A stretch of 14,600 bases of DNA from the UHGV virus genome UHGV-0201016; one strand, given 5' to 3'. The translations under genes and the position numbers were made by a program. The notes beneath the pieces were generated by a model, which saw nothing but the letters and a program-made list of their open reading frames with translations, did no database searches and was not told the DNA's origin. This document shows, piece by piece, positions 1 through 14,600 of this stretch. How positions within the stretch are numbered: position 1 is the stretch's first letter; each line of letters begins with the position of its first letter. Source of the DNA: a virus.

Positions 1-946
1 ACGGTAGTTTGTCTGCCGCAGTGGCAAGGCCTGCCAGTGCGGTCAGTGTGGCGTCGGCAGGTTGTTTTCCATTGGCAAGGTCATATACAGCCTTCACGGC
101 TTTTGGTGTGGCAGCCTGCGTTTCTGACGTGCTGTTAGTGGCGCTGCTGAGCTGGACAAGGCCTTTTCGCGCTGTGGTCGCGTCCTGTGCGGTATATTTC
201 CCGTTAGCAAGGTCATATGCTGTCTTTACCGCCTTTGGCGTTGCCGCAAGCGTTTCAGAATCGCTGTTGGTGGCGCTACTGAGCTGGACAAGACCTTTTC
301 GCGCTGTGGTCGCGTCCTGTGCAGTATATTTCCCGTTAGCAAGGTCATACGCGACCTTTACCGCTCTCGGCGTTGCGGCCAGTGTTTCAGACGTGCTGTT
401 GGTTGCGCTGCTTAACTGAGTAAAACCTTTTGCGGTCAGCGATGCATCCGGGTGTCGTCGTGACTGTTCGTGTTCTGAGATTTTGTCATCCACATATTTA
501 CGGGTCGCCAGTACCACCGACGGGTCGATTTTCAGCGTGATGGCTTCGGTATTCGAGACAACCAGAATCATGCGGATAGTCTGGGTACGACCACTGCCTT
601 CCTGCAACTGCGGTTTGTACGTTTCCGGGCAGTTCGCCACCGCAATGAGTACGCCTTCATCATCATAAAGCCCAATCTCACGGATCCAGAATCCTCCCTC
701 GTTTTCAGGGATGATTTGCTCCGCAATAATCTGGCTCTGATTGTTAGGGTCAACACTCAGAAGATTCAGCGGTGCAATGCGTTTCTGGTTAATCAGTTTT
801 GTCTGTGCCGGGTCTGGTGTCGGTAATACACCATTCGCATCACCAACGGCCATTTGCGTCAGATTCAGCTTACTGCCGAGCATCGTCGCGTTAGCCAGTC
901 GTGCTGCGCCCTGATTAGTCAGAATGGCGTAGTATTTCACTGTCAT
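1..946 (-). CDS. H: Phage tail fibre protein, N-terminal 315 codons (P2 gpH-like); 3' end lies beyond the window start
   Basis: ATG at 946-944 overlaps the TGA stop of the upstream gene (ATGA). Hand translation of the minus strand is open for all 315 codons down to position 1 (MTVKYYAILTNQGAARLANATMLGSKLNLTQMAVGDANGVLPTPDPAQTKL...EHEQSRRHPDASLTAKGFTQLSSATNSTSETLAATP...). It is absent from the ORF track because there is no in-window stop. Confidence 0.85.
   Translation of the reverse strand, partial: MTVKYYAILTNQGAARLANATMLGSKLNLTQMAVGDANGVLPTPDPAQTKLINQKRIAPLNLLSVDPNNQSQIIAEQIIPENEGGFWIREIGLYDDEGVLIAVANCPETYKPQLQEGSGRTQTIRMILVVSNTEAITLKIDPSVVLATRKYVDDKISEHEQSRRHPDASLTAKGFTQLSSATNSTSETLAATPRAVKVAYDLANGKYTAQDATTARKGLVQLSSATNSDSETLAATPKAVKTAYDLANGKYTAQDATTARKGLVQLSSATNSTSETQAATPKAVKAVYDLANGKQPADATLTALAGLATAADKLP
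60..425 (-). repeat. About three tandem copies of a 132-bp (44-codon) in-frame repeat inside the tail fibre gene
   Basis: Copies at about 66-197, 198-329 and 330-425 are near-identical on direct comparison. On the minus strand they encode repeats of LSSATNS(T/D)SETLAATP(K/R)AVKxAYDLANGKYTAQDATTARKGLVQ; on the plus strand they produce the spurious repetitive ORF 9-419. Confidence 0.8.
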
Positions 947-1554
947 GCGTTTACTCTCAGGTTATCAATTAAATGAATGACCGAGGCCGGGAAATAATCC
1001 CCTCCGACAATAATGGCCTCCGGGGTGTAGGGATAAACCGTCAGGGCGTCACCGTGATAGCATCCCGTTCCGGCAAAAATGTTGCCGGTTGTACTTAAAC
1101 TGATAGCCAGTCCCGTCAGATGGCGGCTCGCCGGTTTTGCATCAGCAACGAGACGTTCCAGCTCCAGATACATTTCTTCGGTAATACCCTGCTCAAGCAC
1201 GCCAACAACGATACGGAACGTCCCCGGCTCCTCGTTGAGCTGCCACCACTCCCTCACTTCAATCAGATAGCCGAGCGGCTCCACAACACGCCGGATTGCG
1301 CCGACAGTACCCTTATGACAGTGGATGAAATAGGCATCGCGGATAACGGCGCGTTTTGTCGCTTCCGGCCACTTTTCATCCCACCTGTCGACCGAAAACG
1401 CCCACGCCAGCCACGGCAGCAGATTTGCCGGACAGGTGTCCGGGTTCCACAGTTCACGAATACTGACCGGCGTTTTTTCAATTTCCGCACAGGCTTTTGC
1501 GGCGGCGACTTCAAGCGGTGATGAGCCGGTCGGCAGCAGTCGCGAATCACTCAT
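943..1554 (-). CDS. I: Phage tail/baseplate protein, P2 gpI-like (203 aa)
   Basis: Complete ORF; GGAGG lies 6 nt upstream of the ATG at 1554; stop overlaps the tail-fibre start; position immediately upstream of H as in P2. Family assignment is from recalled similarity. Confidence 0.75.
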   Translation of the reverse strand: MSDSRLLPTGSSPLEVAAAKACAEIEKTPVSIRELWNPDTCPANLLPWLAWAFSVDRWDEKWPEATKRAVIRDAYFIHCHKGTVGAIRRVVEPLGYLIEVREWWQLNEEPGTFRIVVGVLEQGITEEMYLELERLVADAKPASRHLTGLAISLSTTGNIFAGTGCYHGDALTVYPYTPEAIIVGGDYFPASVIHLIDNLRVNA

Positions 1555-1674
1555 CCGAGCCTCCGGTCACGACGTGGTATTCGGTACAGAAAGACGCCTG
1601 CGTACTGTTGAGCACGATACCCGTTCTGGTCGGGTGAACTGTTCAACCGGGGACGCGCCAGCGCCGCCGAACGT

Positions 1675-2514
1675 GTGGAAATCGACGTCAGTCATAACGC
1701 CCTTGCCGGTGGTCTTCTCTGTGCGGACGGCCAGTGGCGGCAGATTGTCACCATTGAGGACGCCCTGAAAGGCGGCTGCACACTGTTCGACATTGAGCAG
1801 CTCAAACGTGAAAACAGCGCCGACGATTTTAAAAACCTGTTCATGTGTGAATTTGTTGACGACAAGGCGTCGGTGTTCCCGTTCGAGGAGCTGCAACGCT
1901 GCATGGTCGACACGCTGGAAGAATGGGAAGACTATGCGCCGTTTGCCGCGAATCCGTTCGGCTCCCGCCCGGTATGGATTGGTTACGACCCGTCACACCG
2001 TGGCGACAGTGCCGGATGCGTGGTGCTGGCACCGCCGGTGGTGGCCGGTGGCAAATTCAGAATACTTGAGCGTCACCAGTGGAAAGGCATGGACTTTGCC
2101 ACCCAGGCGGAATCCATCCGCAAACTCACCGAAAAATATAACGTTGAATACATCGGTATTGATGCCACCGGCCTCGGTGTCGGCGTGTTCCAGCTCGTGC
2201 GCTCGTTCTATCCCGCCGCGCGCGACATCCGCTACACGCCGGAAATGAAAACCGCAATGGTGCTCAAGGCAAAAGACGTTATCCGCCGTGGCTGTCTGGA
2301 ATATGACGTCAGCGCCACCGACATCACCAGCTCGTTTATGGCTATCCGCAAGACCATGACCAGCAGCGGACGCAGCGCCACCTATGAGGCCAGCCGCAGC
2401 GAGGAAGCCAGCCACGCCGACCTCGCCTGGGCGACCATGCACGCCCTGTTAAATGAGCCACTCACCGCCGGTATCAGCACCCCGCTGACATCCACCATTC
2501 TGGAGTTTTACTGA
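1675..2514 (+). pseudogene. P: Terminase large (ATPase/nuclease) subunit, P2 gpP-like, 3' fragment only; 5' part deleted
   Basis: The frame opens only after the stop at 1609-1611 and the first start codon is GTG at 1675, giving at most ~300 codons against a recalled ~590 for gpP. The fragment contains a nuclease-like region (PVWIGYDPSHRGDSAGCVV). Its stop overlaps the portal start (TGATG, 2512-2516). The upstream space is occupied by gpI on the other strand. Confidence 0.7.
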
Positions 2515-3548
2515 TGAGCAAGAAAAAAGGGAAAACACCGCAACCTGCGGCAAAAACAATGACCGCCAGCGCCCCGAAAATGGAGGCATTCACCTTTGGT
2601 GAGCCGGTGCCGGTACTCGACCGCCGTGACATTCTGGATTACGTCGAGTGCATCAGTAACGGCAGATGGTATGAGCCGCCGGTCAGCTTTACCGGTCTGG
2701 CAAAAAGCCTGCGTGCTGCCGTGCATCACAGCTCACCGATTTACGTTAAACGTAATATTCTGGCTTCAACGTTTATCCCGCACCCGTTGCTTTCCCAGCA
2801 GGATTTCAGCCGCTTTGTGCTGGATTTTCTGGTGTTCGGTAATGCGTTTCTGGAAAAGCGCTACAGCACCACCGGTAAGGTCATCAGACTGGAAACCTCA
2901 CCGGCAAAATATACCCGTCGTGGCGTGGAAGAGGATGTTTACTGGTGGGTGCCGTCCTTCAACGAGCCGGCAGCCTTCGCGCCCGGCTCCGTGTTTCACC
3001 TGCTGGAGCCCGATATTAATCAGGAGCTGTACGGCCTGCCGGAATATCTCAGCGCCCTTAACTCTGCCTGGCTGAATGAATCGGCCACGCTGTTCCGCCG
3101 CAAGTATTACGAAAACGGCGCACATGCCGGATACATCATGTACGTCACCGATGCCGTGCAGGATCGCAACGATATCGAAATGCTTCGCGAAAACATGGTT
3201 AAGTCGAAAGGCCGCAACAACTTTAAAAACCTGTTTCTCTATGCCCCGCAGGGGAAAGCCGACGGCATTAAAATTATCCCGCTCAGTGAAGTGGCAACGA
3301 AGGACGATTTTTTTAATATCAAAAAAGCCAGCGCCGCTGACCTGCTGGACGCGCACCGCATCCCCTTTCAGTTGATGGGAGGCAAGCCGGAGAACGTCGG
3401 GTCGCTGGGTGATATTGAGAAAGTGGCAAAGGTCTTTGTCCGCAATGAGCTTATCCCGCTACAGGACAGGATCCGCGAGATAAACGGCTGGCTCGGTCAG
3501 GAGGTCATCCGCTTTAAAAACTACTCACTGGACACTGACAACGGCTGA
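2514..3548 (+). CDS. Q: Phage portal (capsid vertex) protein, P2 gpQ-like (344 aa)
   Basis: Complete ORF translationally coupled to the terminase fragment; basic Lys-rich N-terminus; length and position (last gene before cos, about 170 bp from the cohesive-end sequence) match P2 Q. Confidence 0.85.
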   Translation: MSKKKGKTPQPAAKTMTASAPKMEAFTFGEPVPVLDRRDILDYVECISNGRWYEPPVSFTGLAKSLRAAVHHSSPIYVKRNILASTFIPHPLLSQQDFSRFVLDFLVFGNAFLEKRYSTTGKVIRLETSPAKYTRRGVEEDVYWWVPSFNEPAAFAPGSVFHLLEPDINQELYGLPEYLSALNSAWLNESATLFRRKYYENGAHAGYIMYVTDAVQDRNDIEMLRENMVKSKGRNNFKNLFLYAPQGKADGIKIIPLSEVATKDDFFNIKKASAADLLDAHRIPFQLMGGKPENVGSLGDIEKVAKVFVRNELIPLQDRIREINGWLGQEVIRFKNYSLDTDNG

Positions 3549-3553
3549 ACATC

Positions 3554-3575
3554 GCCGCCTGCGGGCGGCTTTTTT
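3554..3575 (+). terminator. Rho-independent terminator downstream of the portal gene
   Basis: GCCGCC (3554-3559), loop TGCG, GGCGGC (3564-3569), followed by TTTTTT (3570-3575). Confidence 0.55.
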
Positions 3576-3717
3576 ACGCCCCCGTCATCACGCCCTCACA
3601 CGCTCATCACCGCACAAAAAATCCCGCAGACACACCAACGCCCAGCAGGCCAAGTAAACGCCTTCACGACGCGCTCAGACGCTGAAAAAATAAAATCAGC
3701 ACCACCGCCAGCGCGCA

Positions 3718-3736
3718 GTGCTTTCCCCGCCTCGCC
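3718..3736. other. cos cohesive-end sequence, P2 type (19 nt)
   Basis: gtgctttccccgcctcgcc is the reverse complement of GGCGAGGCGGGGAAAGCAC, the 19-nt P2 cohesive end as I recall it. It lies between the portal gene and the cargo operon, as in P2 (Q - cos - old). Confidence 0.7.
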
Positions 3737-3865: not shown

Positions 3866-5836
3866 TTAAAGGTCATCAATTAAACCTAAAGGCAAACCGT
3901 CCTCACCAACCGAGCTATAATGAGCGATAATATTCGAAAGTTCACCAGTAGAAAACGAATTAGGCAAATCATTATCAACTAATATAATCTGGCACGGAAC
4001 ATTTTTTCTTTCTGCTTTTTGAACTGTATTCAATAGTTGTTCATAAATATTTTGATACTTCATCGGATCTGACATTCCCTCAAGGTCATCCTCGACTGCA
4101 AGAGTTTCTTTTGAATATTTTTCCTTGGTCTGTTTCCCTAAATATTTGCCAACCGTATCAAATATCAAAAGTAAAGGATGGTTAACATTATGATCTATTG
4201 CATAATCAAGAATAGACAAAAGATACCCAATAGAAGAAATAGTTCTCAAACCTCCGGATGTTATTTTAAAATATTCTTTTTCTCTTATAACAGGAATGTA
4301 ATAGCTTTCAGAGATTTTTATCCCCGTTCTGTTTTTGATATTAATACCCTTCAAATACTGACTAAATCTATCACCCAAACCTTGTAAAATGCCCTCCATG
4401 CTAGGTGCGTTTTTCTTTAACGCCTCCAAGCGTTCAGTTAATGCTTCAATATCTTTTCTCAGTACCTGATACTTTTCAAGCAGTTCCTCTTGCTGGTTTC
4501 TAACCTTCAAATCTTTTACTAACTGCTCCCTAACCTTCTCATTTTTTGATATCTCTTTAATATAAAAATCTCTCTGAGTCAAGAATGGTGTAATCATTGA
4601 CTGGCTTTCTTCGTCAATCAATTCTCTCAACTCGTGAAGTCGTTCATCTAATTCTTTTTTATAACCTGATTCTTTTTTTAATTTAAATGACATTTCTGAG
4701 ATCATGTCATTAATATTTCGTCTACGTCGACTAAGTGAATTCAACTCTTCATTAAGATCTTTTTCTGATGAAATTTCAAATGGAAAATCAGAATCATCTA
4801 TTTTAATGTGGCTATCACAGATTGGACAGGAAAATACTTCCTTATCCAATACACCAATGCGAGAATTTGCTGTTTTAATCGCTTTGAGTTTTTCAATATC
4901 ATTATCATAGTCATTTTTTAACCGCGAATATTTATCAATCTTATCCTCAAGCGCACTAATATTTAATATGCACTCTTTGTATTTAAGCGAAATAAAATTG
5001 TGAGCATCTTTAAATTCTGTATACTGTATGGAATCCGCTTTCATATTTTTATCGAGAGCAGACAAACCTGCAACAAGTTCTTCTAAAACAAGATCTATCC
5101 TATTAATCTCATCATCAATTGATTCAATTGTTTCATAGTCTGTATCGCGAAGAAATTCAGATATTATCTGATACTTCCTATTTAATTCCGTTACTAAACT
5201 ACTTTTTGCAGATATTTCACCTTGGAGTCTGGCGATGCTTTCATCCAACACATTGAACATGTATTTAAAAACTTCTTTCGTAAATGCGTAGCGGGACCAA
5301 TCACCCAATCGCAAGAAAGATTTACTACCAATATCATCCTGACTTACATAAACAAATTTATATATATTTCTAAAACTTAACCTGCGCATCTGTGAATGCG
5401 CTTTAGAAGGAGACACCTTAATTTCAATCTTTGGGAAATTAAGACTATCAAGTAAAAACTCCGAAAAAACACCATCAACATTTGATAATGGGCTATAATT
5501 AGGAGCGTATTTTTTCGGAAAATGTTTATGTAAATCATCAAACTTACAACGATAAACTTCTATTGCTTTTTTATGATCATAGATATCTCTTACGATTGTG
5601 AATACAGTATCATTGATCACTACTTCAAGAGCAGCATAGTTTACTGATGTTTTTATTTCATCTGCTAAATCTATAGAGCTAGCACCTAAAAGATAATTAA
5701 TAAACTCCAGAATGCTTGACTTACCTGTGTCAGAGTCTCCGTAGATAACATTGAGACCTTTATAAAAAGTAGTGACGTAGTTTTTACGAACACCAACAAG
5801 AATCAAACTATTGATATTGAGATATGATTTCATCAT
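3866..5836 (-). CDS. SMC/Rad50/RecN-like ABC ATPase with long central coiled coil and a CxxC motif (LmuB-like position)
   Basis: 656-aa ORF. Walker A GDSDTGKS (aa 33-40, nt 5717-5740); about 300 aa of heptad-like charged sequence; CPIC at aa 337-340 (nt 4817-4828) near the middle of that region; ABC-signature-like ITSGGLRT (about aa 523-530); Walker-B-like HPLLLIFDT (Asp560 followed by Thr, not Glu). N-terminus resembles RecN/RecF/SMC heads. Confidence 0.75.
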   Translation of the reverse strand: MMKSYLNINSLILVGVRKNYVTTFYKGLNVIYGDSDTGKSSILEFINYLLGASSIDLADEIKTSVNYAALEVVINDTVFTIVRDIYDHKKAIEVYRCKFDDLHKHFPKKYAPNYSPLSNVDGVFSEFLLDSLNFPKIEIKVSPSKAHSQMRRLSFRNIYKFVYVSQDDIGSKSFLRLGDWSRYAFTKEVFKYMFNVLDESIARLQGEISAKSSLVTELNRKYQIISEFLRDTDYETIESIDDEINRIDLVLEELVAGLSALDKNMKADSIQYTEFKDAHNFISLKYKECILNISALEDKIDKYSRLKNDYDNDIEKLKAIKTANSRIGVLDKEVFSCPICDSHIKIDDSDFPFEISSEKDLNEELNSLSRRRRNINDMISEMSFKLKKESGYKKELDERLHELRELIDEESQSMITPFLTQRDFYIKEISKNEKVREQLVKDLKVRNQQEELLEKYQVLRKDIEALTERLEALKKNAPSMEGILQGLGDRFSQYLKGINIKNRTGIKISESYYIPVIREKEYFKITSGGLRTISSIGYLLSILDYAIDHNVNHPLLLIFDTVGKYLGKQTKEKYSKETLAVEDDLEGMSDPMKYQNIYEQLLNTVQKAERKNVPCQIILVDNDLPNSFSTGELSNIIAHYSSVGEDGLPLGLIDDL

Positions 5837-6345
5837 TTCTCCTTGAAAACTTGATTTATAACAGAGTTTAACTTAGAGGTAGGCAATGCTTGTAGCGGTA
5901 ACAATGCTTCGGATAGTCGTTTTATTTCTTTAAAATATCCATCAGTCAATGAGCTAGCAAATTCCTTACCTTTTTCAGATAAAAATAATTTAACACTCTC
6001 ATTATTTTTTTTCTCAGCTGAGAGCAATCCCCGCAATGACATAATTTTTATAAGATATTTCACTTTGGAATTGTCGAATAAGATATCTACATTTGATGAA
6101 AAACTCTTTATTGTATAAGTTAACTGGGACTCGACACAAGCAGGCTTTTTCCCCGAAATTGTAAGAGCATAATCAATTTTTGATGGGTTTTTTATCAGAT
6201 ACATAAAAATTTGTATTTTATTAATATCTAATGATAACACTCCTTTTTTGCTATGAGATAATATAGATATAGCAATGGCAAGCATAGCAAAATTCAAGCT
6301 ATACTCTTCATCAAGAGGAATATACGGCAAGTTATTTTTCTTCAT
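5833..6345 (-). CDS. Small protein of unknown function (170 aa), middle gene of the three-gene operon (LmuC-like position)
   Basis: Complete ORF. Its start overlaps the stop of the hydrolase gene by 14 nt, and its TGA overlaps the ATG of the ATPase gene (ATGA at 5833-5836). No recognisable motif. Confidence 0.55.
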   Translation of the reverse strand: MKKNNLPYIPLDEEYSLNFAMLAIAISILSHSKKGVLSLDINKIQIFMYLIKNPSKIDYALTISGKKPACVESQLTYTIKSFSSNVDILFDNSKVKYLIKIMSLRGLLSAEKKNNESVKLFLSEKGKEFASSLTDGYFKEIKRLSEALLPLQALPTSKLNSVINQVFKEK

Positions 6346-7555
6346 GATTACCTCGCCGTAATTGCTCCAAAGTTTCTACGCTGGTTTCAGATGACCAGAC
6401 AATATCTCTATCATTTTTGTTAGCCAGTTGATGCAACATTCCTTTCTTATGTATCGTTTCTAAACTTTTTATAAGAGAATCTAACGACGACTTATCCTCT
6501 TGGGCTATTCGTCTATGAACAGCAGCAATAAATTTATCTGGGGAAATTGAATTCGCGATATATTGCTCATACTCTTCCTGGTAAATCTCCCTTATTTTAG
6601 AATACAAATGACCAAGTAGTTTCCTATCGTAATCACTCGTAAAAATATTTCTCGCAAGCTCAGCATTATAATAATATTCCTTTGCATGCATAGCGATATC
6701 CTGATGTATATCTGCGACAATCATTTTTAAGACGAAATACTCATTATCATATTGTTTCTCATCAGAAAAACGCTCAACACATATCTTCTTGGGTGCTTCT
6801 AAATTTATCTGCTGAATAAATTGCTTTACCGCAACAAACACTGTAGACGAGCTGTTTTCGGGCTTGCAAATTGAGCTATGCCCTTCATTAACTGCAATTG
6901 AGTTATTTCGTTCACTATCCATCGGTAATGCGCTTTTTTTATCAACTATAGTGTCATGAGAACCATAAACATATCTAGTGATAGGAAGTTTTTTGCTACA
7001 ATTTATCCAGCGCCTATTCAATGTATCAGTCGCTTCACTTAACAATCCAAGATCTACTAACTGAGCATTTGAAGATACCATTGAAGTTATATTCGCCAAT
7101 TTAGCACCAAAGTGAGGGACTGCTAACGAAATGAATCCAATTATATTAGATTGTTCCTCATGCTCAACTTTTTTTAGAATTAGATTTTTTGATATTAACC
7201 CCCCCATACTATGGGCAATTATTATAATTCGAGAGTAATCACTTAACGTTACCCTAATCTCAGTATACAATAACTCAGCTATTTCATCAGTTGGTAAATT
7301 TCTCTCTAACTTATTTTTCTTAGAGAAAATACGAGCCAATAATCCTGACGTTTTAGCATACGTTTGTGTAAATTTGGTGAAATAGTTGAAACATGCAATA
7401 TCAAATACATTGCCAATGTCTTCATCTTCTGCTAATAGTTTTGGAAATGAAGTTTCTTTATTAAAGTTCCATGTTTCCAAACCACCATTTAATCCATGTA
7501 CAAATAGTATCAGGCTATCTTTTTTCTCGTGGCTTATCCATTCAACCATGCTCAT
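6332..7555 (-). CDS. Alpha/beta-hydrolase (lipase/esterase-type) fusion protein with a C-terminal all-helical domain of unknown function; candidate effector of the defence operon (LmuA-like position)
   Basis: 407-aa ORF. LILFVHGLNGG (HG oxyanion region); nucleophile elbow IIIIAHSMGGL with the Ser codon at 7208-7210; candidate acid GSHDTIVD; candidate His NEGHSSICK. Residues ~250-407 are charged and helical with no catalytic motif I recognise. AT-rich codon usage. Its last 14 nt overlap the next gene. Confidence 0.7.
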   Translation of the reverse strand: MSMVEWISHEKKDSLILFVHGLNGGLETWNFNKETSFPKLLAEDEDIGNVFDIACFNYFTKFTQTYAKTSGLLARIFSKKNKLERNLPTDEIAELLYTEIRVTLSDYSRIIIIAHSMGGLISKNLILKKVEHEEQSNIIGFISLAVPHFGAKLANITSMVSSNAQLVDLGLLSEATDTLNRRWINCSKKLPITRYVYGSHDTIVDKKSALPMDSERNNSIAVNEGHSSICKPENSSSTVFVAVKQFIQQINLEAPKKICVERFSDEKQYDNEYFVLKMIVADIHQDIAMHAKEYYYNAELARNIFTSDYDRKLLGHLYSKIREIYQEEYEQYIANSISPDKFIAAVHRRIAQEDKSSLDSLIKSLETIHKKGMLHQLANKNDRDIVWSSETSVETLEQLRRGNHEEK

Positions 7556-7644: not shown

Positions 7645-9927
7645 CTACCACTCACGCTGTCTGTCAAAAAAGTCGATATCGTTATCAAATTTAAAACGCT
7701 TATGCCCAAAATCCAAAACAGCTCCGCGAGCGAGAGCTTCAAGCTCCCAATAACTAGCCTGAATGTCACTTTGTGCAAGAAGAACCTTAATTTTCGGGAT
7801 AGTCTTTCTCTCCTGTCTTGTCAACCGGGCGGATGGGGCAGGAAAGTAGCTTCGACCATTGAAAGGGGTAAAGCTCTGCTGTGAACGATTACTGCATTTC
7901 AGTTCATTACTCAATAAGTCTCTAAGTACCTTCATAATGCCTGGCTCGGTCCAACTTAGAATCCCTTCATCTATTAAATTTAACACCGCTGCAGCATGCT
8001 CAGTCGGTGTGGGTGCCGGTAACGAAGTATCACCACCGTTGAGCTTTCCACAGTTATTGACAGGACTCCGAGGCGCGGCGATGCCGCTTTTTAAAGTCAA
8101 AGGCTCAACGACCGGAACTTTCGGCACAATGCGCCAGTCCGTCGTTCTGGTGATATGAATATGACGCGCGCCGAGATGCGGCGCGTAAATGCCGACCACT
8201 CTCTCGACTTCTTCCTCGTACTCGTTAACTTCATCCGACGGGCTACGGGCGACTCTGACAGTCTGACAATCGCGCGGAACATTTGCCCCACCCTGCGCGC
8301 TGATATACAACGCAAAATCACCACTGTCTGCGGCGGCGCGTGCAGCCTCGACGCGCTCGTCAAACTCATCAGCAATGCTGACGCCGCGCGGCAATTTGCG
8401 TAGTTCACGGTAAGCCCCCATTGTCGGCAGGCCAACCGTTTTAAATTGCGGGATGCGCCACGTTGACGCCCATGCGGTAACAGCCGCTGCAGTGTCTTTC
8501 AGCGGCCTGCCGGTGTCGTTATCGAGCTGACCATCCAGTGCATAGCCGTCGATGTTTTTTGAAATGTATTTCGCGATATATCCCGCAGCACCGCCCCGGT
8601 TAAGGTGTTTTGCCTGAAAACGGTTTCGCGCGGCTCCTCTTTCGTCGCCATCCTCTTTGAGCGCATAGCGACGCATGATTTCGATAATCTGGTTACGCTG
8701 GCGTGAATTACAAAAAAGCATCATATGCCAGTGCGGCGTTCCGTCGTGGTGTGGCTCGACGACACGCAAACCGTAGACCTGTAAATCATTATCCTTGAAT
8801 GCCGTGCGCATCAGGCTCCAGATACGGCAGAGATAACGCTGCGCATCCTTTGGATTAAATGCCTCATCGTTCCAGCCGTGATTAAGCTGCACGGTTTTAC
8901 TTTCGCCTTTTCCTACCTGACGTGTCGGGTGATACTTTGACGGCGCGGTCAGCGTGATAAACATCCCCACATCACCCTCTGCAGCGGCGTAACGCTCAAT
9001 ACCGGCAATGGTGTTCATCAGCTCCATCCGGCGAATTTCAGGATTAGAAATACTGCCCATCACCTTACTGATAAGGTCGATGCGCTCGCCGGTTTCCCTG
9101 TTTTCAAGGTCACACGATTTAAGAAATTCCAGATTTGCCTGGCGGCGCGCACGCACATCACGAATGGCGTGTTTACTGGCATAAGGAGAACGGTCTTTAT
9201 TGACCTCCCCGACAGCTATTAGTAACGCTTCATGCCAGCGCATACGCTGGCCTTTAAGCTGATGAGTCCACCACTCATCGTTAAACAGACGGGCAATGGC
9301 AGAATATGCCTGCCTCGTGGTCATCTGCCCTTTACGGTATTTTTTCCAGTAGAGCGGGGAAATATTGAAAGCACGTGCAGCGCCAGCAACATGACCATAG
9401 AGGTGAGCCTGCGCCTCATCCGTAAACAGCGATTCTTTTTCGCCATGCGCATCCACCCAGGCATCGCTGAGTTCCTCATACATCATGAAAAGCTGCGATG
9501 AGATACGGGCAGCAAACTTTTTCAGCTCCTTGTCATTCATTCCCGGCAGGCGCGCATAGTGGTCACGCTCTGCCAGAAACAGTAACGACGCGTCGGTGTT
9601 CATTTCATGGCGCTGATTCACACGCTCAATGCGCGGCCATAAACGACGCTGAAAAGTGGATGTGAGGAAATAAAACCCGTGCACCGGGCTTTTATTGCGC
9701 CGGATGTAGTCATAGCGTGAAGTAAACAGCGAGCGCAAAAAGTAAGGCAGGCGGTTAATCGTGGATAAAACACCTTGCACCTGATGCATCTCGTCACGTG
9801 TAAGGGGTCTTTCGCGCCCGACGGCCTCGCGTGGCGCGTTCCATGCATAAGCACCGGTAAACGCCTTACCGGTGCCTGCAGCAAATGCTGACGGAGGGAC
9901 AAAACGCCCGGAGGCTTTAACGGCCAT
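7645..9927 (-). CDS. A: Replication initiation protein, P2 gpA-like HUH rolling-circle endonuclease (761 aa from ATG at 9927)
   Basis: HUH motif PHWHMMLF and tyrosine motif GYIAKYISK are visible. The track ORF begins at TTG 9969; the first ATG is at 9927, giving 761 aa, the recalled length of P2 A. Confidence 0.85.
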   Translation of the reverse strand: MAVKASGRFVPPSAFAAGTGKAFTGAYAWNAPREAVGRERPLTRDEMHQVQGVLSTINRLPYFLRSLFTSRYDYIRRNKSPVHGFYFLTSTFQRRLWPRIERVNQRHEMNTDASLLFLAERDHYARLPGMNDKELKKFAARISSQLFMMYEELSDAWVDAHGEKESLFTDEAQAHLYGHVAGAARAFNISPLYWKKYRKGQMTTRQAYSAIARLFNDEWWTHQLKGQRMRWHEALLIAVGEVNKDRSPYASKHAIRDVRARRQANLEFLKSCDLENRETGERIDLISKVMGSISNPEIRRMELMNTIAGIERYAAAEGDVGMFITLTAPSKYHPTRQVGKGESKTVQLNHGWNDEAFNPKDAQRYLCRIWSLMRTAFKDNDLQVYGLRVVEPHHDGTPHWHMMLFCNSRQRNQIIEIMRRYALKEDGDERGAARNRFQAKHLNRGGAAGYIAKYISKNIDGYALDGQLDNDTGRPLKDTAAAVTAWASTWRIPQFKTVGLPTMGAYRELRKLPRGVSIADEFDERVEAARAAADSGDFALYISAQGGANVPRDCQTVRVARSPSDEVNEYEEEVERVVGIYAPHLGARHIHITRTTDWRIVPKVPVVEPLTLKSGIAAPRSPVNNCGKLNGGDTSLPAPTPTEHAAAVLNLIDEGILSWTEPGIMKVLRDLLSNELKCSNRSQQSFTPFNGRSYFPAPSARLTRQERKTIPKIKVLLAQSDIQASYWELEALARGAVLDFGHKRFKFDNDIDFFDRQREW

Positions 9928-10192
9928 ATGAGCCAAAAGCCTCTGAACAACGCCTGCTGAGTTGCTCAACCTGCGCGTTTAAATCAGCAAAAGACTTTGC
10001 GCTTCCGGTCAGAATATCGTGATGCATCAGGCCGGAAACGAGCTGGCTTAATTTCGGATAATAACCAACCACCGCCAGCCATTCCTGACCGGCGTTTTTA
10101 CCGCTTTCCGCTCTCTTTTTCTCGTGGAGAATAAACTGAAAGCTGTCACTGGTAACGACATAACGTTCGCCAATTTCAATACGAATACTCAT
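9917..10192 (-). CDS. Hypothetical early protein (P2 orf83-like position)
   Basis: 91-aa ORF in the chain of start/stop-overlapping genes between B and A; no motif recognised. Confidence 0.55.
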   Translation of the reverse strand: MSIRIEIGERYVVTSDSFQFILHEKKRAESGKNAGQEWLAVVGYYPKLSQLVSGLMHHDILTGSAKSFADLNAQVEQLSRRCSEAFGSYGR

Positions 10193-11002: not shown

Positions 11003-11503
11003 TTAATGCAGATATTGCTCTGGTTTTACCGACGTCAGAATTGTCGGTGCATACTCAAACAGACTGAATAATTCACGTAACGCACGGAATAAAGCATCAC
11101 GCCAGTAACATGACTCTTCATTAATTCGCCAGTATGGCTGGTTGAATTCTTTTTCAGTCAATCCGGCATGCATAAATAAAGTACGGCGCTGACTGACAGT
11201 TAAAAAGCTAATATATGCATACTCACTTGCACCGACCTGACGGCGTTTTGAGAATGCCCCACGCAGTTCATCAATTGCACAAACCAGCCGTTCACGTTCG
11301 ACGTCGTTCATTTCTTCAAAACGCATCGTTGCGTGACGCTGTTTTAACTGCGCATGGAAGCAAACCGTTAGCCGTTCACGTTCCATCATCTGATTATAAT
11401 AATCGCATGTATCCTGCCAGCGAGGGACGGCCAGATGCTTACCAATTATCCGGCGCATAGCTGCTGGCTGTTTTTCAACAAGATTGAGCGTCATCACTGT
11501 CAT
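11003..11503 (-). CDS. B: Replication protein, P2 gpB-like (166 aa)
   Basis: Complete 166-aa ORF in the position and with the length of P2 B, between the orf78-like ORF and the small ORF cluster. Confidence 0.7.
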   Translation of the reverse strand: MTVMTLNLVEKQPAAMRRIIGKHLAVPRWQDTCDYYNQMMERERLTVCFHAQLKQRHATMRFEEMNDVERERLVCAIDELRGAFSKRRQVGASEYAYISFLTVSQRRTLFMHAGLTEKEFNQPYWRINEESCYWRDALFRALRELFSLFEYAPTILTSVKPEQYLH

Positions 11504-11736
11504 TTCCAGACCCTCCGGCTTTTCAGAAAGGTCAGAGCCTTATTTAACGGACTCTGTTTTTTGGTGCGGATAATGATTCCCTTACGCCCCTTACCGTGGG
11601 TAATGGTGAAGTCAATCGCCCTTGGGCTTTCGTTACGCAATAACTGAGCAATACAACGAGGCTCGTTCATCCTTTCCACCTTAAGCCGCACGGCCATGTC
11701 TTGATTTGCTGTAACTAATGCGATTTTTCCAGTCAT
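11500..11736 (-). CDS. Hypothetical protein (P2 orf78-like), start uncertain
   Basis: The track ORF starts at 11760; the internal Met at 11736 gives 78 aa and less overlap with the upstream gene; 4-nt overlap with the B start. Confidence 0.45.
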   Translation of the reverse strand: MTGKIALVTANQDMAVRLKVERMNEPRCIAQLLRNESPRAIDFTITHGKGRKGIIIRTKKQSPLNKALTFLKSRRVWK

Positions 11737-12037
11737 GCCATTCTGTCGGAGCTTCATCAACTAGCTGGGCTGCGTACTTGTCCCACTCACGGCGATTAAT
11801 CCATAACTCAGCATGACCGCCCGGCTTTAATGGGTCCGTCATATAAAAGGCTGGTAACTTGCCTGCTTTCGCCATTTCAGCAACAGCGCGAGGCGTCTTA
11901 CCGATGTAAAGAGCAAAACCCTCTTTCGAGAGCAAATCCGACGGTGCGGCTGCAAGTTTGATGTCACATTTTTTACTTTTTGTGAGATCAGATACTTTTT
12001 CTCCAACATCGTTATTCATTTCTGATCCAATACTCAT
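11681..12037 (-). CDS. cox: Cox-like excisionase / early-promoter regulator (HTH), start uncertain
   Basis: HTH-like segment FALYIGKTPRAVAEMAKAGKLPAFYMTDP resembles the P2 Cox / 186 Apl family. The track start is TTG at 12067; ATG at 12037 has GAGG 8 nt upstream. Confidence 0.6.
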   Translation of the reverse strand: MSIGSEMNNDVGEKVSDLTKSKKCDIKLAAAPSDLLSKEGFALYIGKTPRAVAEMAKAGKLPAFYMTDPLKPGGHAELWINRREWDKYAAQLVDEAPTEWHDWKNRISYSKSRHGRAA

Positions 12038-12141
12038 TTTGATATCCTCAACTTTGGTGCCATTCAACCAGAGCTATTTGAAGCCGCTCTGCGTTGTTCT
12101 GGTGTGTCGCATACAACATAAATTACGAGATACGACAATTC
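12038..12141. promoter_or_regulatory. Immunity switch region between divergent cox-like and C-repressor genes (expected site of early and repressor promoters and operators)
   Basis: 104-bp intergenic region between divergent regulators. Only weak sigma70-like hexamers (for example TTGTTC-N17-CATAAA toward C) could be picked out by eye; no element is resolved. Confidence 0.35.
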
Positions 12142-12453
12142 ATGTCAAATACACAAATCACATCTCAAGCAGAGAAACTCGCACTTATTCGGGAATCAGA
12201 AAGAATGACAAGGAAGCAAGTTGCTGAATTAACTGGAATTAACTACAACACCTATGCTGGATATGAGCAGGGAAAAGTAAAGATGTCTTTTGACGCAGGT
12301 ATGAAATTTTTCAAGCCAGAAAGATTTCGCAAGTACCGTGACTGGTTCATGTTTGATGAAACTGATCCCGCTGGCGGACAAATAGCCCCGGCGCTCGCGC
12401 ACATTGGGCAAGACTCAACAACCTTGCACCACTCAGACCAAAAGACTGGCTGA
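12142..12453 (+). CDS. C: Immunity repressor, P2 C-type (Xre-like HTH), 103 aa
   Basis: HTH segment RKQVAELTGINYNTYAGYEQGK. The track start at 12094 is TTG; the first ATG (12142) gives about 100 aa, as for P2 C. It lies upstream of and co-oriented with int, as in P2. Confidence 0.75.
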   Translation: MSNTQITSQAEKLALIRESERMTRKQVAELTGINYNTYAGYEQGKVKMSFDAGMKFFKPERFRKYRDWFMFDETDPAGGQIAPALAHIGQDSTTLHHSDQKTG

Positions 12454-12546
12454 CGATTTATTCAGCATATGTGTGCAGTAAATGTACGAAAGAAAATTGC
12501 ATTAATTTTCAAGTAGTAGAAGTAAACAGCGTCATCGGAGGGCTTT

Positions 12547-13542
12547 ATGTCTATTAAAAAGCTCGATGATGGTCGTTATGAAGTGGACGTCAGACCGCAG
12601 GGTGCAGATGGAAAACGTATCAGGCGGAAATTTAAAACTAAAGGTGAAGCTCAAGCATTCGAACGTCATGTGCTGGTTAACTACCACAACAAAGAGTGGC
12701 TGGAGAAGCCAGCCGACCGCCGAACTCTTACAGAGTTGTTAGGCAGATGGTGGATATATCACGGAAAATCACATGAGCGTGGAAATATTGAACGGGGGCG
12801 TTTGACGACAATAATCGCCAAATTTGCAGAAATGGGAGTGTCCAGAGCTGACCAGTTAACAAAGAAAACGATAACTGATTATCGAGTTGTAATGATGAAC
12901 GATGGTCTAAAACCAGCCAGCGTAAATCGGCATCTGGCAATAATGAGCGGGATGTTCACCAAGTTAATTGACGCCGGTGAATACCACTCTCACAACCCGT
13001 TCCGTGAGGTTAAGCGGTTACGTGAAGCTGTTACAGAAATGGCTTTTTTGTCCAGTGAAGAGATTACGCGGCTGTTATCCATGCTTGATGGTGATGAGTT
13101 AAATGCAACTCTGGTCTGCCTTTCTACTGGTGGACGCTGGAGTGAAGTGTCTAATTTGAAAGCTGAACACATCATTAACCAGATGGTTACGTTTATGAAA
13201 ACTAAAAACGGAAAGCGCAGGACAATTCCCGTTTCGCAGGACCTGATTAAAAGGATCAAGACCAAAAATTCAGGCAGGCTTTTTAATGCCAGTTACTACA
13301 AAGTGCGTAACGCTCTCAGGGAAGTAAAACCCGATTTACCTGACGGACAAGCAGTACATGTTTTGAGGCATACATTTGCCACACATTTTATAATGAATGG
13401 AGGTAACATAATCACATTGCAGCGCATCCTGGGTCATTCTAACATTCAGCAAACTATGACCTACGCACACTTTGCACCGGATTTCTTACAAGATGCTGTG
13501 ACTCTTAACCCGGTGTCAGGAATGTCCATAATGCGTCCATAA
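12547..13542 (+). CDS. int: Tyrosine integrase, P2 Int family (331 aa)
   Basis: GGAGGG lies 5 nt upstream of the ATG. Catalytic-box motifs HVLRHTFATHF and TMTYAHF are present; the N-terminus MSIKKLDDGRYEVDVRP is typical of P2/186 integrases. Confidence 0.9.
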   Translation: MSIKKLDDGRYEVDVRPQGADGKRIRRKFKTKGEAQAFERHVLVNYHNKEWLEKPADRRTLTELLGRWWIYHGKSHERGNIERGRLTTIIAKFAEMGVSRADQLTKKTITDYRVVMMNDGLKPASVNRHLAIMSGMFTKLIDAGEYHSHNPFREVKRLREAVTEMAFLSSEEITRLLSMLDGDELNATLVCLSTGGRWSEVSNLKAEHIINQMVTFMKTKNGKRRTIPVSQDLIKRIKTKNSGRLFNASYYKVRNALREVKPDLPDGQAVHVLRHTFATHFIMNGGNIITLQRILGHSNIQQTMTYAHFAPDFLQDAVTLNPVSGMSIMRP

Positions 13543-13630
13543 ACCAGAGTTAACTAGAGCCAATTGAAGCGATATGAGTAATTTAACTAATTGTAATACA
13601 ACAGAAAATACCGCTACGGCGGGGGCTACC
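13543..13630. other. attR junction region (phage/host boundary), core not resolved
   Basis: This 88-bp interval separates the int stop from the first codon with recognisable PflA homology. The P2 attP core is not present, so the element has a different site specificity. Confidence 0.35.
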
Positions 13631-14371
13631 AAGTCAGTTATTGGTCGCATTCACTCCTTTGAATCCTGTGGAACCGTAGACGGCCCAGGTATTCGCTTTA
13701 TCACCTTTTTCCAGGGCTGCCTGATGCGCTGCCTGTATTGTCATAACCGCGACACCTGGGACACGCATGGCGGTAAAGAAGTTACCGTTGAAGATTTGAT
13801 GAAGGAAGTGGTGACCTATCGCCACTTTATGAACGCTTCCGGCGGCGGCGTTACCGCATCCGGCGGTGAAGCAATCCTGCAAGCTGAGTTTGTTCGTGAC
13901 TGGTTCCGCGCCTGCAAAAAAGAAGGCATTCATACCTGTCTGGACACCAACGGTTTTGTTCGTCGTTACGATCCGGTGATTGATGAACTGCTGGAAGTAA
14001 CCGACCTGGTAATGCTCGATCTCAAACAGATGAACGACGAGATCCACCAAAATCTGGTTGGAGTTTCCAACCACCGCACGCTGGAGTTCGCTAAATATCT
14101 GGCGAACAAAAATGTGAAGGTGTGGATCCGCTACGTTGTTGTCCCAGGCTGGTCTGACGATGACGATTCAGCGCATCGCCTCGGTGAATTTACCCGTGAT
14201 ATGGGCAACGTTGAGAAAATCGAGCTTCTCCCCTACCACGAGCTGGGCAAACACAAATGGGTGGCAATGGGTGAAGAGTACAAACTCGACGGTGTTAAAC
14301 CACCGAAGAAAGAGACCATGGAACGCGTGAAAGGCATTCTTGAGCAGTACGGTCATAAGGTAATGTTCTAA
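13574..14371 (+). CDS. pflA: Pyruvate formate-lyase activating enzyme (glycyl-radical activase, radical SAM) with a 19-codon N-terminal extension; canonical start position is AAG
   Basis: CLMRCLYC radical-SAM cluster motif; residues 21-265 match E. coli PflA (246 aa, [14 protein letters not shown]...) as recalled. Codon 13631-13633 is AAG where ATG is expected, and the only in-frame start is ATG at 13574. Confidence 0.85.
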
Positions 14372-14383
14372 TTTCCCCGTAAA

Positions 14384-14413
14384 GCGGCAACTTTATTGAG
14401 TTGCCGCTTTTTT
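14384..14413 (+). terminator. Rho-independent terminator downstream of pflA
   Basis: GCGGCAAC (14384-14391), 8-nt loop, GTTGCCGC (14400-14407), then TTTTTT (14408-14413). Confidence 0.6.
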
Positions 14414-14452
14414 ATTCCGCGCTTCATTCTGCTACAGCGTTTTTAACACATC

Positions 14453-14600
14453 TTATAGTGCATCTACCATATCCCGTACCTGAGATAATAACGACTGATA
14501 ATAGCTCGCGTGAAGTTCTTCCCCATCGAATACCACTGTATTACACAAGAAAGTGACATCGGCATCTTCAATACCAAGATAACTGCACATATTTTTTAAA
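14453..14600 (-). CDS. 3' end (48 codons) of a host gene convergent with pflA; product not identified
   Basis: Minus-strand frame is open from the window end to the TAA at 14455-14453 (...NMCSYLGIEDADVTFLCNTVVFDGEELHASYYQSLLSQVRDMVDAL*); protein-like composition; start lies outside the window. Confidence 0.4.
   Translation of the reverse strand, partial: LKNMCSYLGIEDADVTFLCNTVVFDGEELHASYYQSLLSQVRDMVDAL

Follow-up and report, generated by a model that had tools for sequence, protein, structure and literature searches.

The 14.6-kb stretch of DNA from the viral genome UHGV-0201016 (hereafter the window) contains a P2-like prophage with a genuine internal deletion of approximately 9-10 kb, which left the final 23 codons of gene J fused to the terminase gene P at codon 293. 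Its end in P lies on a TA dinucleotide that is probably break-prone, and as the explanation we favour repeated breakage at this dinucleotide with joining by microhomology. The same base of P, in the TA of the codon for Tyr293, forms one end of 19 distinct junctions at the DNA level, comprising that of the window and at least 18 in other assemblies. As judged from the sequences compared here, this shared breakpoint points to a putative, previously undescribed break-prone site. We found no description of this terminase hotspot in the literature, and such a recurrent hotspot centred on TA is apparently novel.

Gene content of the prophage

The window corresponds to a P2-like prophage at pflB/pflA in the orientation opposite to the P2 map. 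In a blastn comparison, blocks of 89-97% identity to P2 followed each other in a single orientation, interrupted only by the deletion and by known variable regions. The gene order, H-I-J ... P-Q-cos-cargo-A-B-cox-C-int, is that of P2-like phages (Peduoviridae), and the Pfam matches agree with it (Table 1). The host gene pflA adjoins the int side of the prophage, and the ogr-side end lies outside the window. The part of H present in the window has a frame-2 translation starting with MTVKYYAILTNQGAARL. Positions 1-1619 are 100% identical to prophages of E. coli E1 and 23CRST022, where the annotation is tail-collar fibre protein. The C-terminal module of gpI is unlike that of P2, and homology to P2 in this gene is limited to 1118-1554.

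Table 1 Features of the prophage in the window. Coordinates are window positions; + and - denote the strand.
Feature	Position	Strand	Evidence and remarks
H, tail-fibre gene, 5' part	1..947	-	runs off the left window edge; N-terminal region with about three 132-nt repeats
gpI, baseplate/tail protein I, intact, 203 aa	943..1554	-	Pfam Tail_P2_I, E=2e-55
J remnant, last 23 codons and stop, 73 nt	1547..1619	-	overlaps the gpI start codon as in P2
109-aa ORF	1567..1896	-	antisense to P', in the gpI frame
Deletion junction	1618..1619		TA common to both parents; three-way alignment
P', terminase large subunit, codons 293-590	1618..2514	+	97% identical to P2 2117..1221
Q, portal, intact, 344 aa	2514..3548	+	Pfam Phage_portal; length equals that of intact relatives
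cos, 19-nt cohesive end, intact	3718..3736		GGCGAGGCGGGGAAAGCAC on the minus strand; overlapping matches to the P2 left and right ends
Three cargo genes, P2 old/tin position	3866..7555	-	Pfam; RefSeq names in relatives
A, replication initiator, 760 aa from ATG	7645..9927	-	Pfam Phage_GPA, E=3.5e-123
B	11003-11503	-	full length
cox, 118 aa	11681-12037	-	Pfam Phage_Cox; full length
Repressor C, 103 aa	12142-12453	+	Pfam HTH_3; full length
Integrase, 331 aa	12547-13542	+	Pfam Phage_integrase; full length
att core GTCAGTTATTGGT, 13 nt	13633..13645		prophage/pflA boundary

The three cargo genes encode a 656-aa SMC/AAA-like ATPase, a 170-aa ABC-3C middle component MC4 (Pfam E=2e-26) and a 407-aa alpha/beta-hydrolase with an ABC-3C CTD8 domain (E=1.5e-35) plus DUF676, and the MC4 and CTD8 domains assign the trio to an ABC-three-component system according to Pfam. 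The origin nick site lies inside A at approximately position 8069, with an ori sequence (GCGCCTCGGAGTCCTGTCAATAAC) identical to that of P2, and orf80-83 are listed between A and B. The early and immunity block (11003..13542) has the same ORF lengths as in the related loci L026 and L027, and its sequence is 100% identical to pflA-site prophages. The att core is the only stretch of at least 10 nt that the int-side junction of the window shares with the ogr-side junctions of L004, L007 and L013. A previous reading of the window, made from the sequence only, had described immunity, integration, replication and cargo genes as intact, and this is borne out by C, cox, int, B, A with ori, the portal gene, cos and the cargo, whose ORF lengths equal those of intact relatives.

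The junction between J and P

The sequence-only reading had located a deletion junction between 1555 and 1700. Alignment to P2 and a three-way alignment including an intact relative placed it at 1618/1619, 64 nt upstream of the gpI start codon. By blastn, window 1118-1618 (1619) corresponds to P2 12629-12129 and window 1618-3736 to P2 2117-1, both on the same strand. P2 position 2117 is the first base of codon 293 of the 590 codons of P (STLAHDA/YPFWSGE, where the slash, here and below, marks the breakpoint), and from there the homology to P continues unbroken through Q to cos. In a search of E. coli genomes, the match of the left arm stopped at 1619 and that of the right arm began at 1618. 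The left parent reads GATA/TCGG and the right parent GCCTA/CCCG; identity to the J/I parent is perfect up to GATA, identity to the P parent is perfect from TACCCG on, and the switch lies within TA. Apart from this TA, the two parents are unrelated over 30 nt on either side, as is the case in microhomology-mediated illegitimate recombination. The microhomology for which the sequence-only reading had proposed to look is thus present, but amounts to just 2 nt. On the P side, the breakpoint TA/CCCGTTCTGG falls in the Tyr293 codon (context GCC-TA-CCCGTTCTGG); the sequence of the site includes CCGTTCTGG, and a codon for Tyr requires TA.

Since both arms are collinear with P2 and share one orientation relative to it, the event is a deletion, as the sequence-only reading had proposed, and not an inversion, and neither a second terminase gene nor a capsid gene is present in the window. 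The deletion corresponds to P2 2118-12128 (10,011 bp). The intact relative closest to the window over the right arm is the prophage of E. coli OkiPb01683 (L002), in which window 1619 corresponds to position 14184 and window 1618 to position 23321; the 9,136-bp interval in between holds 17 annotated genes plus parts of J and P, which is what a simple deletion would remove. Lost are the 5' half of P, the divergent pP/pO promoter region, O, N, M, L, X, Y, K, lysA, lysB, lysC, R, S, orf30, pV, V, W and 279 of the 302 codons of J, and none of the missing genes was found elsewhere in the 14.6-kb window. In agreement with the sequence-only reading, the baseplate genes V and W and most of J, the lysis genes and the capsid genes are therefore gone, and the terminase is reduced to its 3' half. 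Since every head, lysis and tail-completion gene is lost together with V, W and most of J, the element is predicted to be unable to form particles. Three of the four Ogr-dependent late promoters were removed as well, which leaves I-H(-G) and P'-Q without a late promoter. The element kept cos, ori with A, B, cox, C, int and the defence cargo, and the junction of the window in itself is an ordinary defective-prophage deletion.

In the remaining part of the terminase gene, the first in-frame start is a GTG at 1675, resulting in an ORF of 279 aa. This product keeps the nuclease domain and lacks the HTH and the Walker ATPase core, the pP promoter being gone too; accordingly, Pfam matched Terminase_6C completely and Terminase_6N over its last 50 positions only. 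The J remnant translates as IVLNSTQASFCTEYHVVTGGSDE up to the stop codon, where the C-terminus of P2 gpJ reads DIVLNSTQASFCTEYRVVTGGSDE. The suggestion that a 109-aa ORF on the minus strand holds the last codons of J had to be abandoned: this ORF is in the gpI frame and the J remnant (1547-1618) in another one, and the ORF (1567-1896) is very likely not a gene.

None of 5,426 complete E. coli genomes covered a 401-nt probe spanning the J/P junction to at least 80%. The junction was also absent from a set with one genome per species, from IMG/VR and JGI metagenomes and from seven contigs encoding an identical 656-aa cargo protein. Across all collections searched, the J/P junction of the window is thus a single observation.

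Recurrence of the breakpoint in P

A search of a public assembly collection for the exact 279-aa product of P' gave 341 blocks. Among the ten loci listed for it, eight are deletions, and in the other two an otherwise intact prophage has a small lesion in P. In the alignment of the eight deletion loci, the homology to P starts in every case at TA/CCCGTTCTGGTC with unrelated sequence to the left. The genes preceding P' in these loci are a D fragment, G, E, an FI fragment, ogr, a T fragment and a V fragment, with left ends at P2 positions 23191, ~14340, 19400, 18402, 23742, 21682 and ~10290. Since any breakpoint across the approximately 120 nt from an in-frame ATG 22 codons upstream to the GTG would yield the same 279-aa product, the precision of the breakpoint is not an artefact of the look-up. 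Pattern scans from which the native upstream bases were excluded revealed further junctions with left ends inside P at 2646 (L015) and at 19399 (L016/17), 21978 (L019), ~17590 (L020) and 21296 (L021). Fusion ORFs detected by protein search added junctions in D (L022 and L025), N (L024) and S (L032), one in J at a different position (L033), and one in D that is one base short (L034). In the closed genome FT130, an element with the order ogr-D'-M'/P'-Q...int lies between yegQ and yegR and has the junction GGCGGG-TA-CCCG.

Altogether, the left partners of the P site are located in P, M, N, S, upstream of V, J, G/H, FI, FII-E, T and D. All 19 junctions are collinear deletions, none of them inverted, and contain no filler nucleotides. 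An IS element or other insertion was not found at the junction in any locus. Two further events, P0096 from a lineage with 59% identity and P0134, were recognised at the protein level only, and L035 and L036 (P0103 and P0122) were set aside as genomes with scrambled gene order. The junctions were collected by anchoring on P', and the statement that the site is hotter than other positions refers to the comparison within P: in a set of 14 rearranged P' proteins, in whose retrieval the site played no part, the switch occurs exactly at Y293 in eight, within 7 codons of it in three and elsewhere in three. The event is rare: among 1,631 E. coli records containing a P2-type P, a match that spans the site at full length is present in 1,615 and lacking in 16. 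Scans of IMG/VR for the reciprocal class gave only synonymous TAT variants and chance matches, on contigs lacking P2 homology.

The site is used under three integrase types with unrelated att cores, namely AATCTCCCTTACACGGGC..., GTCAGTTATTGGT and a 47-nt core on the cpxP side. A lineage with 82% protein identity (L022) breaks at the same codon, with TA/TCCG at the site (DNA TA/TCCGTTCTGGTCTGG), and the break in a prophage of Erwinia rhapontici (L023) lies 3-4 nt to the right of the site. The P site also serves as left partner, both in an in-frame internal deletion with the junction GACGCC-TAC-ACGCCGG (P0104/L069) and in P0101, where P is fused at Y293 to the portal gene. The site, which encodes the motif AYPFWSG, is conserved across diverged lineages and recalls the targets of homing endonucleases, a resemblance and nothing beyond it; natural FPFWSG variants of P occur as well.

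Sequence preferences at the partner end

The crossover dinucleotide of the partner was read from parents that are identical, or nearly so, over all 60 nt adjoining the junction. It is TA in 13 of 16 cases, TG in two and CA in one, against a background in which TA makes up 3.4% of the dinucleotides of the late region. Without exception, the left parent supplies the base preceding the TA and P supplies the one following it, and thus the exchange takes place within the TA. With such a dinucleotide and one end fixed in 19 junctions, the end points differ from the scatter that chance repeats would produce. When measured against the 719 TA sites that the late region contains, the partners have an excess of G at -2 (14/19, p=2e-4), of C at +2 (12/17, p=1.4e-3) and of C or G at -3 (17/19, p=1.5e-3), i.e. 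a symmetric pattern S-G-N-TA-N-C-S. The same comparison rules out codon context as the source of the flanking motif.

Some partners recur: the FII-E site was found in two sequence backgrounds, and the D site at 23742 was joined to the P site in L010 and L013 and to V in L012. TA-centred junctions also exist away from the P site, namely in L027 (P 1455 joined to E 19450, GGCGGA-TA-CCCTGG) and in the mentioned L012 (D 23742 joined to V 10679), as do junctions in relatives that are not centred on TA (L026 with a microhomology of 8 nt, and the D/M junction of FT130). Five of the 19 left ends lie in D, a gene representing 5% of the interval in which they could fall; this excess reflects either a preference for the longest deletions compatible with retention of ogr or an abundance of suitable partner sites in D.

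Possible mechanisms

From the pattern of end points in these sequences, we infer a site-specific break and microhomology-mediated end joining. In the proposed mechanism, a DNA end or nick would form repeatedly at the TA of the Tyr293 codon of P and would be joined to another TA of the late region via the 2-nt overlap, without homology of the RecA type, and partner TAs with G at -2 and C at +2 would be preferred. No nuclease, recombinase or arrest signal was identified for the P site; a hitherto undescribed nuclease or recombinase with a 2-nt stagger is possible.

Two candidates for the agent were tried and rejected. The hairpin ACCCG-TTCTGGT-CGGGT beside the P site is absent in the L022 lineage (TATCCGTTCTGGTCTGG), in which the same codon is broken. 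A type IIA topoisomerase, with its 4-nt stagger, G at -1 and C at +5, does not agree with a crossover inside TA. By inspection, the nick region of cos and the P site resemble each other (CGGG-CG/GGCG and CGGG-TA/GGCG, respectively), a similarity that leaves the TA at the partners unexplained.

Copy-choice template switching could lead to the same junctions without a break, if a replication fork, either chromosomal or from P2 rolling-circle replication, paused at the TA of the Tyr293 codon and if its growing 3' end (...AACGGGTA) re-annealed at another, partly complementary TA site and was extended from there, so that the interval in between was lost. Such primer re-annealing would account for the TA overlap and for the additional matches of some partners beyond it (TAACCG, TACCCA and TACCGG compared to TACCCG), the lack of filler and inversions is in line with it, and the leading strand from ori, as deduced from the ori strand, runs through Q into P and thus in the direction needed. 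We nevertheless regard template switching as possible but rather doubtful, as a pause signal was not identified, the 5-bp hairpin is missing in the L022 lineage despite use of the same codon, primer annealing would not require the G that is enriched at -2 in the retained part of the partner, and use of the site as left partner would require the fork to pause from both directions. We give a smaller chance, as a speculative extension of the break-and-join reading, to a dedicated and conserved activity encoded by phage, satellite or host, which would cut TA with a 2-nt stagger and a preference for G-N-TA-N-C, break and join the DNA and thereby disarm P2-like prophages.

Two phage enzymes were considered as well. 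Recombination by Int between secondary att-like sites, as in P2 eduction and presumably in the remnant of E. coli K-12, is suggested by the att core of P2 (CCCT-TA-CACGGG), which resembles the P site (TACCCG) and several partners (TACACG, TACACC), and by the K-12 remnant PR-X, which ends at the very D site used in L010, L012 and L013, joined there to the att core via TACAC. Against this, the P site is used together with three unrelated att cores while the partner motif is the same among them, and tyrosine recombinases, whose strand exchanges lie 6-8 bp apart, normally depend on identity over this distance, whereas only 2 nt are shared here. The integrase is therefore unlikely to be responsible, although att cores can take part, as the K-12 junction demonstrates. 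The rolling-circle nuclease gpA, an HUH enzyme, might instead cut a pseudo-origin in P, followed by aberrant strand joining. Both gpA and ori are intact in every deletion derivative, rolling-circle nick sites provide a precedent for one end being fixed while the other varies, and the P site shares, by eye, CGCCT...GT.CTG.TC...AACTG with the origin (GCGCCTC/GGAGTCCTGTCAATAACTG). Reportedly, Michel and Ehrlich (1986) obtained deletions with one end at the rolling-circle nick site in M13 and pC194. In local-alignment scans of the whole P2 genome, however, the resemblance to ori places the P site only among the top 4-34% of windows, no more than chance would produce, and the nick of the origin is not at a TA, whereas the partners carry TA; we therefore judge a role of gpA to be improbable.

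An ordinary, one-off illegitimate deletion with end points devoid of meaning, in which case the apparent recurrence would stem from selection for a truncated terminase or from one ancestral event, is very improbable. Defective prophages with assorted deletions are common, the relatives L026 and L027 have other end points, and the over-representation of D among the left ends suggests some selection on the extent of the deletion; but selection at the protein level cannot set a breakpoint to one base, nineteen different left partners are incompatible with a single event, and P' lacks its promoter. Finally, it is hardly credible that the assembly is chimeric or that two P2-like prophages of one genome underwent an inversion, for even though the left arm is 100% identical to prophages at yegQ/yegR and the right arm 100% identical to prophages at pflA, and short-read assemblies with the same cargo break around it in a manner that suggests several P2-like copies per genome, assemblers mis-join in long repeats and not at a 2-nt overlap of non-homologous genes, both arms are collinear with P2, mixed ancestry of the arms is expected in mosaic phages of this type, and many independent assemblies, one of them a closed genome, have their P-side breakpoint at precisely this base, which also answers the concern about an artefact raised in the sequence-only reading.

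Implications

Around twenty independent deletions that share one base across integrase types and lineages mean that part of prophage decay is directed by sequence. If a dedicated activity did exist, this decay would amount to a semi-programmed disarmament of prophages or to the birth of satellites rather than to random loss. Deletion from the P site towards ogr would then create non-lytic elements equipped with cos, ori, int and defence cargo, the smallest of which, at approximately 11 kb the size of P4, could act as helper-dependent satellites. The junctions also suggest how mini-elements bearing cos might have arisen, which, with their antiviral cargo, could be mobilised by a helper phage. 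What turns a dangerous prophage into a harmless carrier of defence genes becomes a testable question, for which the site, the TA rule and the partner motif are concrete experimental handles. For annotators, the breakpoint provides a diagnostic signature of this class of P2 remnants, and the remnant in K-12 shares one of the hot partner sites.

Comparison with known systems

The cryptic prophage PR-X of K-12 (ogrK-yegZ) is, like the element in the window, a P2-like prophage shrunk by an internal deletion with a TA-centred junction. Its end in D (P2 23742, CTCTGC-TA-CAC) is joined to the P hotspot in L010 and L013 and to the V site in L012. The two elements differ in that PR-X has the att core as partner and lost everything but ogr and 219 nt of D, whereas the element in the window kept approximately two thirds of the phage and has the terminase site as partner.

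P2 eduction is an Int-dependent deletion from the P2 prophage into neighbouring DNA that starts at att. The hotspot deletions resemble it in starting at a defined P2 sequence and ending at a weakly similar secondary site, but the P hotspot is 22 kb away from att, and prophages with three types of integrase make use of it. Replication-arrest (Ter) sites and the rolling-circle nick sites of M13 and pC194 were reportedly described as deletion hot spots by Bierne, Michel and Ehrlich between 1986 and 1991. Deletions at such places share with those at the P site one end fixed to the base, a variable other end and a very short overlap without homology of RecA length. The P site is distinguished from them by the recurring TA overlap (13/16), by the symmetric G-N-TA-N-C bias of the partners and by its use as either left or right partner, and we know of no arrest protein or nick signal at this site.

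The derivatives of approximately 11 kb (L010, L013 and FT130) are similar to satellites of the P4 type in that they kept cos, a replicon, int, cox, the repressor and the late activator ogr. Their gene content and size match those of a satellite able to use a P2 helper. Unlike P4 satellites, they are deletion derivatives of P2 and have no genes for capsid-size control or exploitation of a helper. The element in the window is not satellite-like, as it is much larger than these derivatives and kept I, H and presumably more tail genes. With defective or domesticated prophages in general, the elements described here have in common that morphogenetic genes were lost while genes for immunity, integration and accessory functions such as defence were kept. 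The decay of prophages is usually described as unpatterned, whereas in the P2-like prophages compared here one breakpoint recurs to the base.

Ancestry and architecture of the two ends of the window

The closest relatives of the two ends of the window differ. The left arm, comprising the tail-fibre gene H, the gpI gene and the last 23 codons of J (J'), is 100% identical to prophages located at yegQ/yegR (strains E1 and 23CRST022), whereas the right end, spanning cox, C, int and pflA, matches prophages at pflB/pflA with 100% identity, among them that of strain 2452. Both ends together were found in no complete genome. With regard to gpI, the protein encoded in the window is 203 aa long compared to 176 aa in P2 and, since the C-terminal modules of the two proteins are unrelated, gene I contains a mosaic boundary. 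In the N-terminal part of H, a 132-nt unit occurs approximately three times in tandem, with the repeated peptide ...LSSATNSTSETLAATPKAVK.AYDLANGKYTAQDATTARKG....

The start of pflA is the insertion point of the prophage. The native ATG of pflA is replaced there by a new start from phage DNA, resulting in an N-terminal extension of 19 aa, and PflA in lysogens is annotated at 265 aa, i.e. with this phage-supplied extension.

Features of the window, with positions in nucleotides.
Feature	Position	Strand	Length	Remarks
H-I-J' arm	1-1619
Tail fibre H, N-terminal part	1-700	minus		tandem repeats
gpI, C-terminal module	943-1117
ABC-three-component (ABC-3C) cargo	3866-7555	minus		three genes, at the P2 old/tin hotspot
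SMC/AAA-like ATPase	within 3866-7555	minus	656 aa	cargo gene
MC4 middle component	within 3866-7555	minus	170 aa	cargo gene
alpha/beta-hydrolase (DUF676/PGAP1-like) with CTD8 domain	within 3866-7555	minus	407 aa	cargo gene
cox-C-int-pflA end	11600-14600
pflA, start at insertion point	13574-14371
att core	13633-13645		13 nt	GTCAGTTATTGGT; shared stretch of 13 nt only

Defence cargo and its carriers

Many O157:H7 strains also carry the ABC-3C module of the window, at 98% identity, within P2-like prophages that are intact. Two further loci, L026 (GCA_001637655.1) and L027 (GCA_012871615.1), encode a 656-aa cargo protein identical to that of the window, each being defective in its own way: L026 has intact head genes and a lysA|T deletion formed via an 8-nt microhomology, and in L027, a prophage at the pflA site, P is reduced to its last 88 codons, which are joined to E through a TA.

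Small lesions and scrambled-looking neighbourhoods around the terminase hotspot

Small lesions were seen within 30 nt of the recurrent deletion breakpoint, the TA of the Tyr293 codon of P, in otherwise intact P genes of four loci (L009 at 9930-9950, L014 at about 9920, L018 and L034). L009, in the closed genome CP027484, has an additional T in CCCGTT(T)CTGG, L014 has a scaffold gap of 10 N, L018 lacks a C in GACGC(C)TA at low coverage, and the junction in L034 is short by one base. Sequencing noise may account for these lesions, or else they may have been left behind by imprecise repair at the site.

Scrambled-looking gene neighbourhoods were observed in two NCBI chromosomes of 5.7-5.9 Mb (CP050206 and CP050194; loci L035 and L036, respectively), where flagellar, T6SS, colanic-acid and phage genes are interleaved around P fragments that stop a few codons past the hotspot. 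These genomes are possibly misassembled or heavily rearranged.

Partner site in gene D and the smallest derivatives

The cryptic element PR-X of E. coli K-12 (ogrK-yegZ; MG1655, 2167183-2167820) stops at P2 coordinate 23742 in gene D, and TACAC links this end to the att core. In L010 and L013 the partner of the same D site is the terminase hotspot, and in L012 it is a V site.

Together with L037 (strain FT130), L010 and L013 are the shortest elements in this class of deletion derivatives and, at about 11 kb, are near P4 in size. All three retain ogr, cos, Q, A/ori, B, cox, C and int plus defence cargo, which in FT130 is an RT gene. Judged from gene content, this set would correspond to what a helper-dependent satellite needs.
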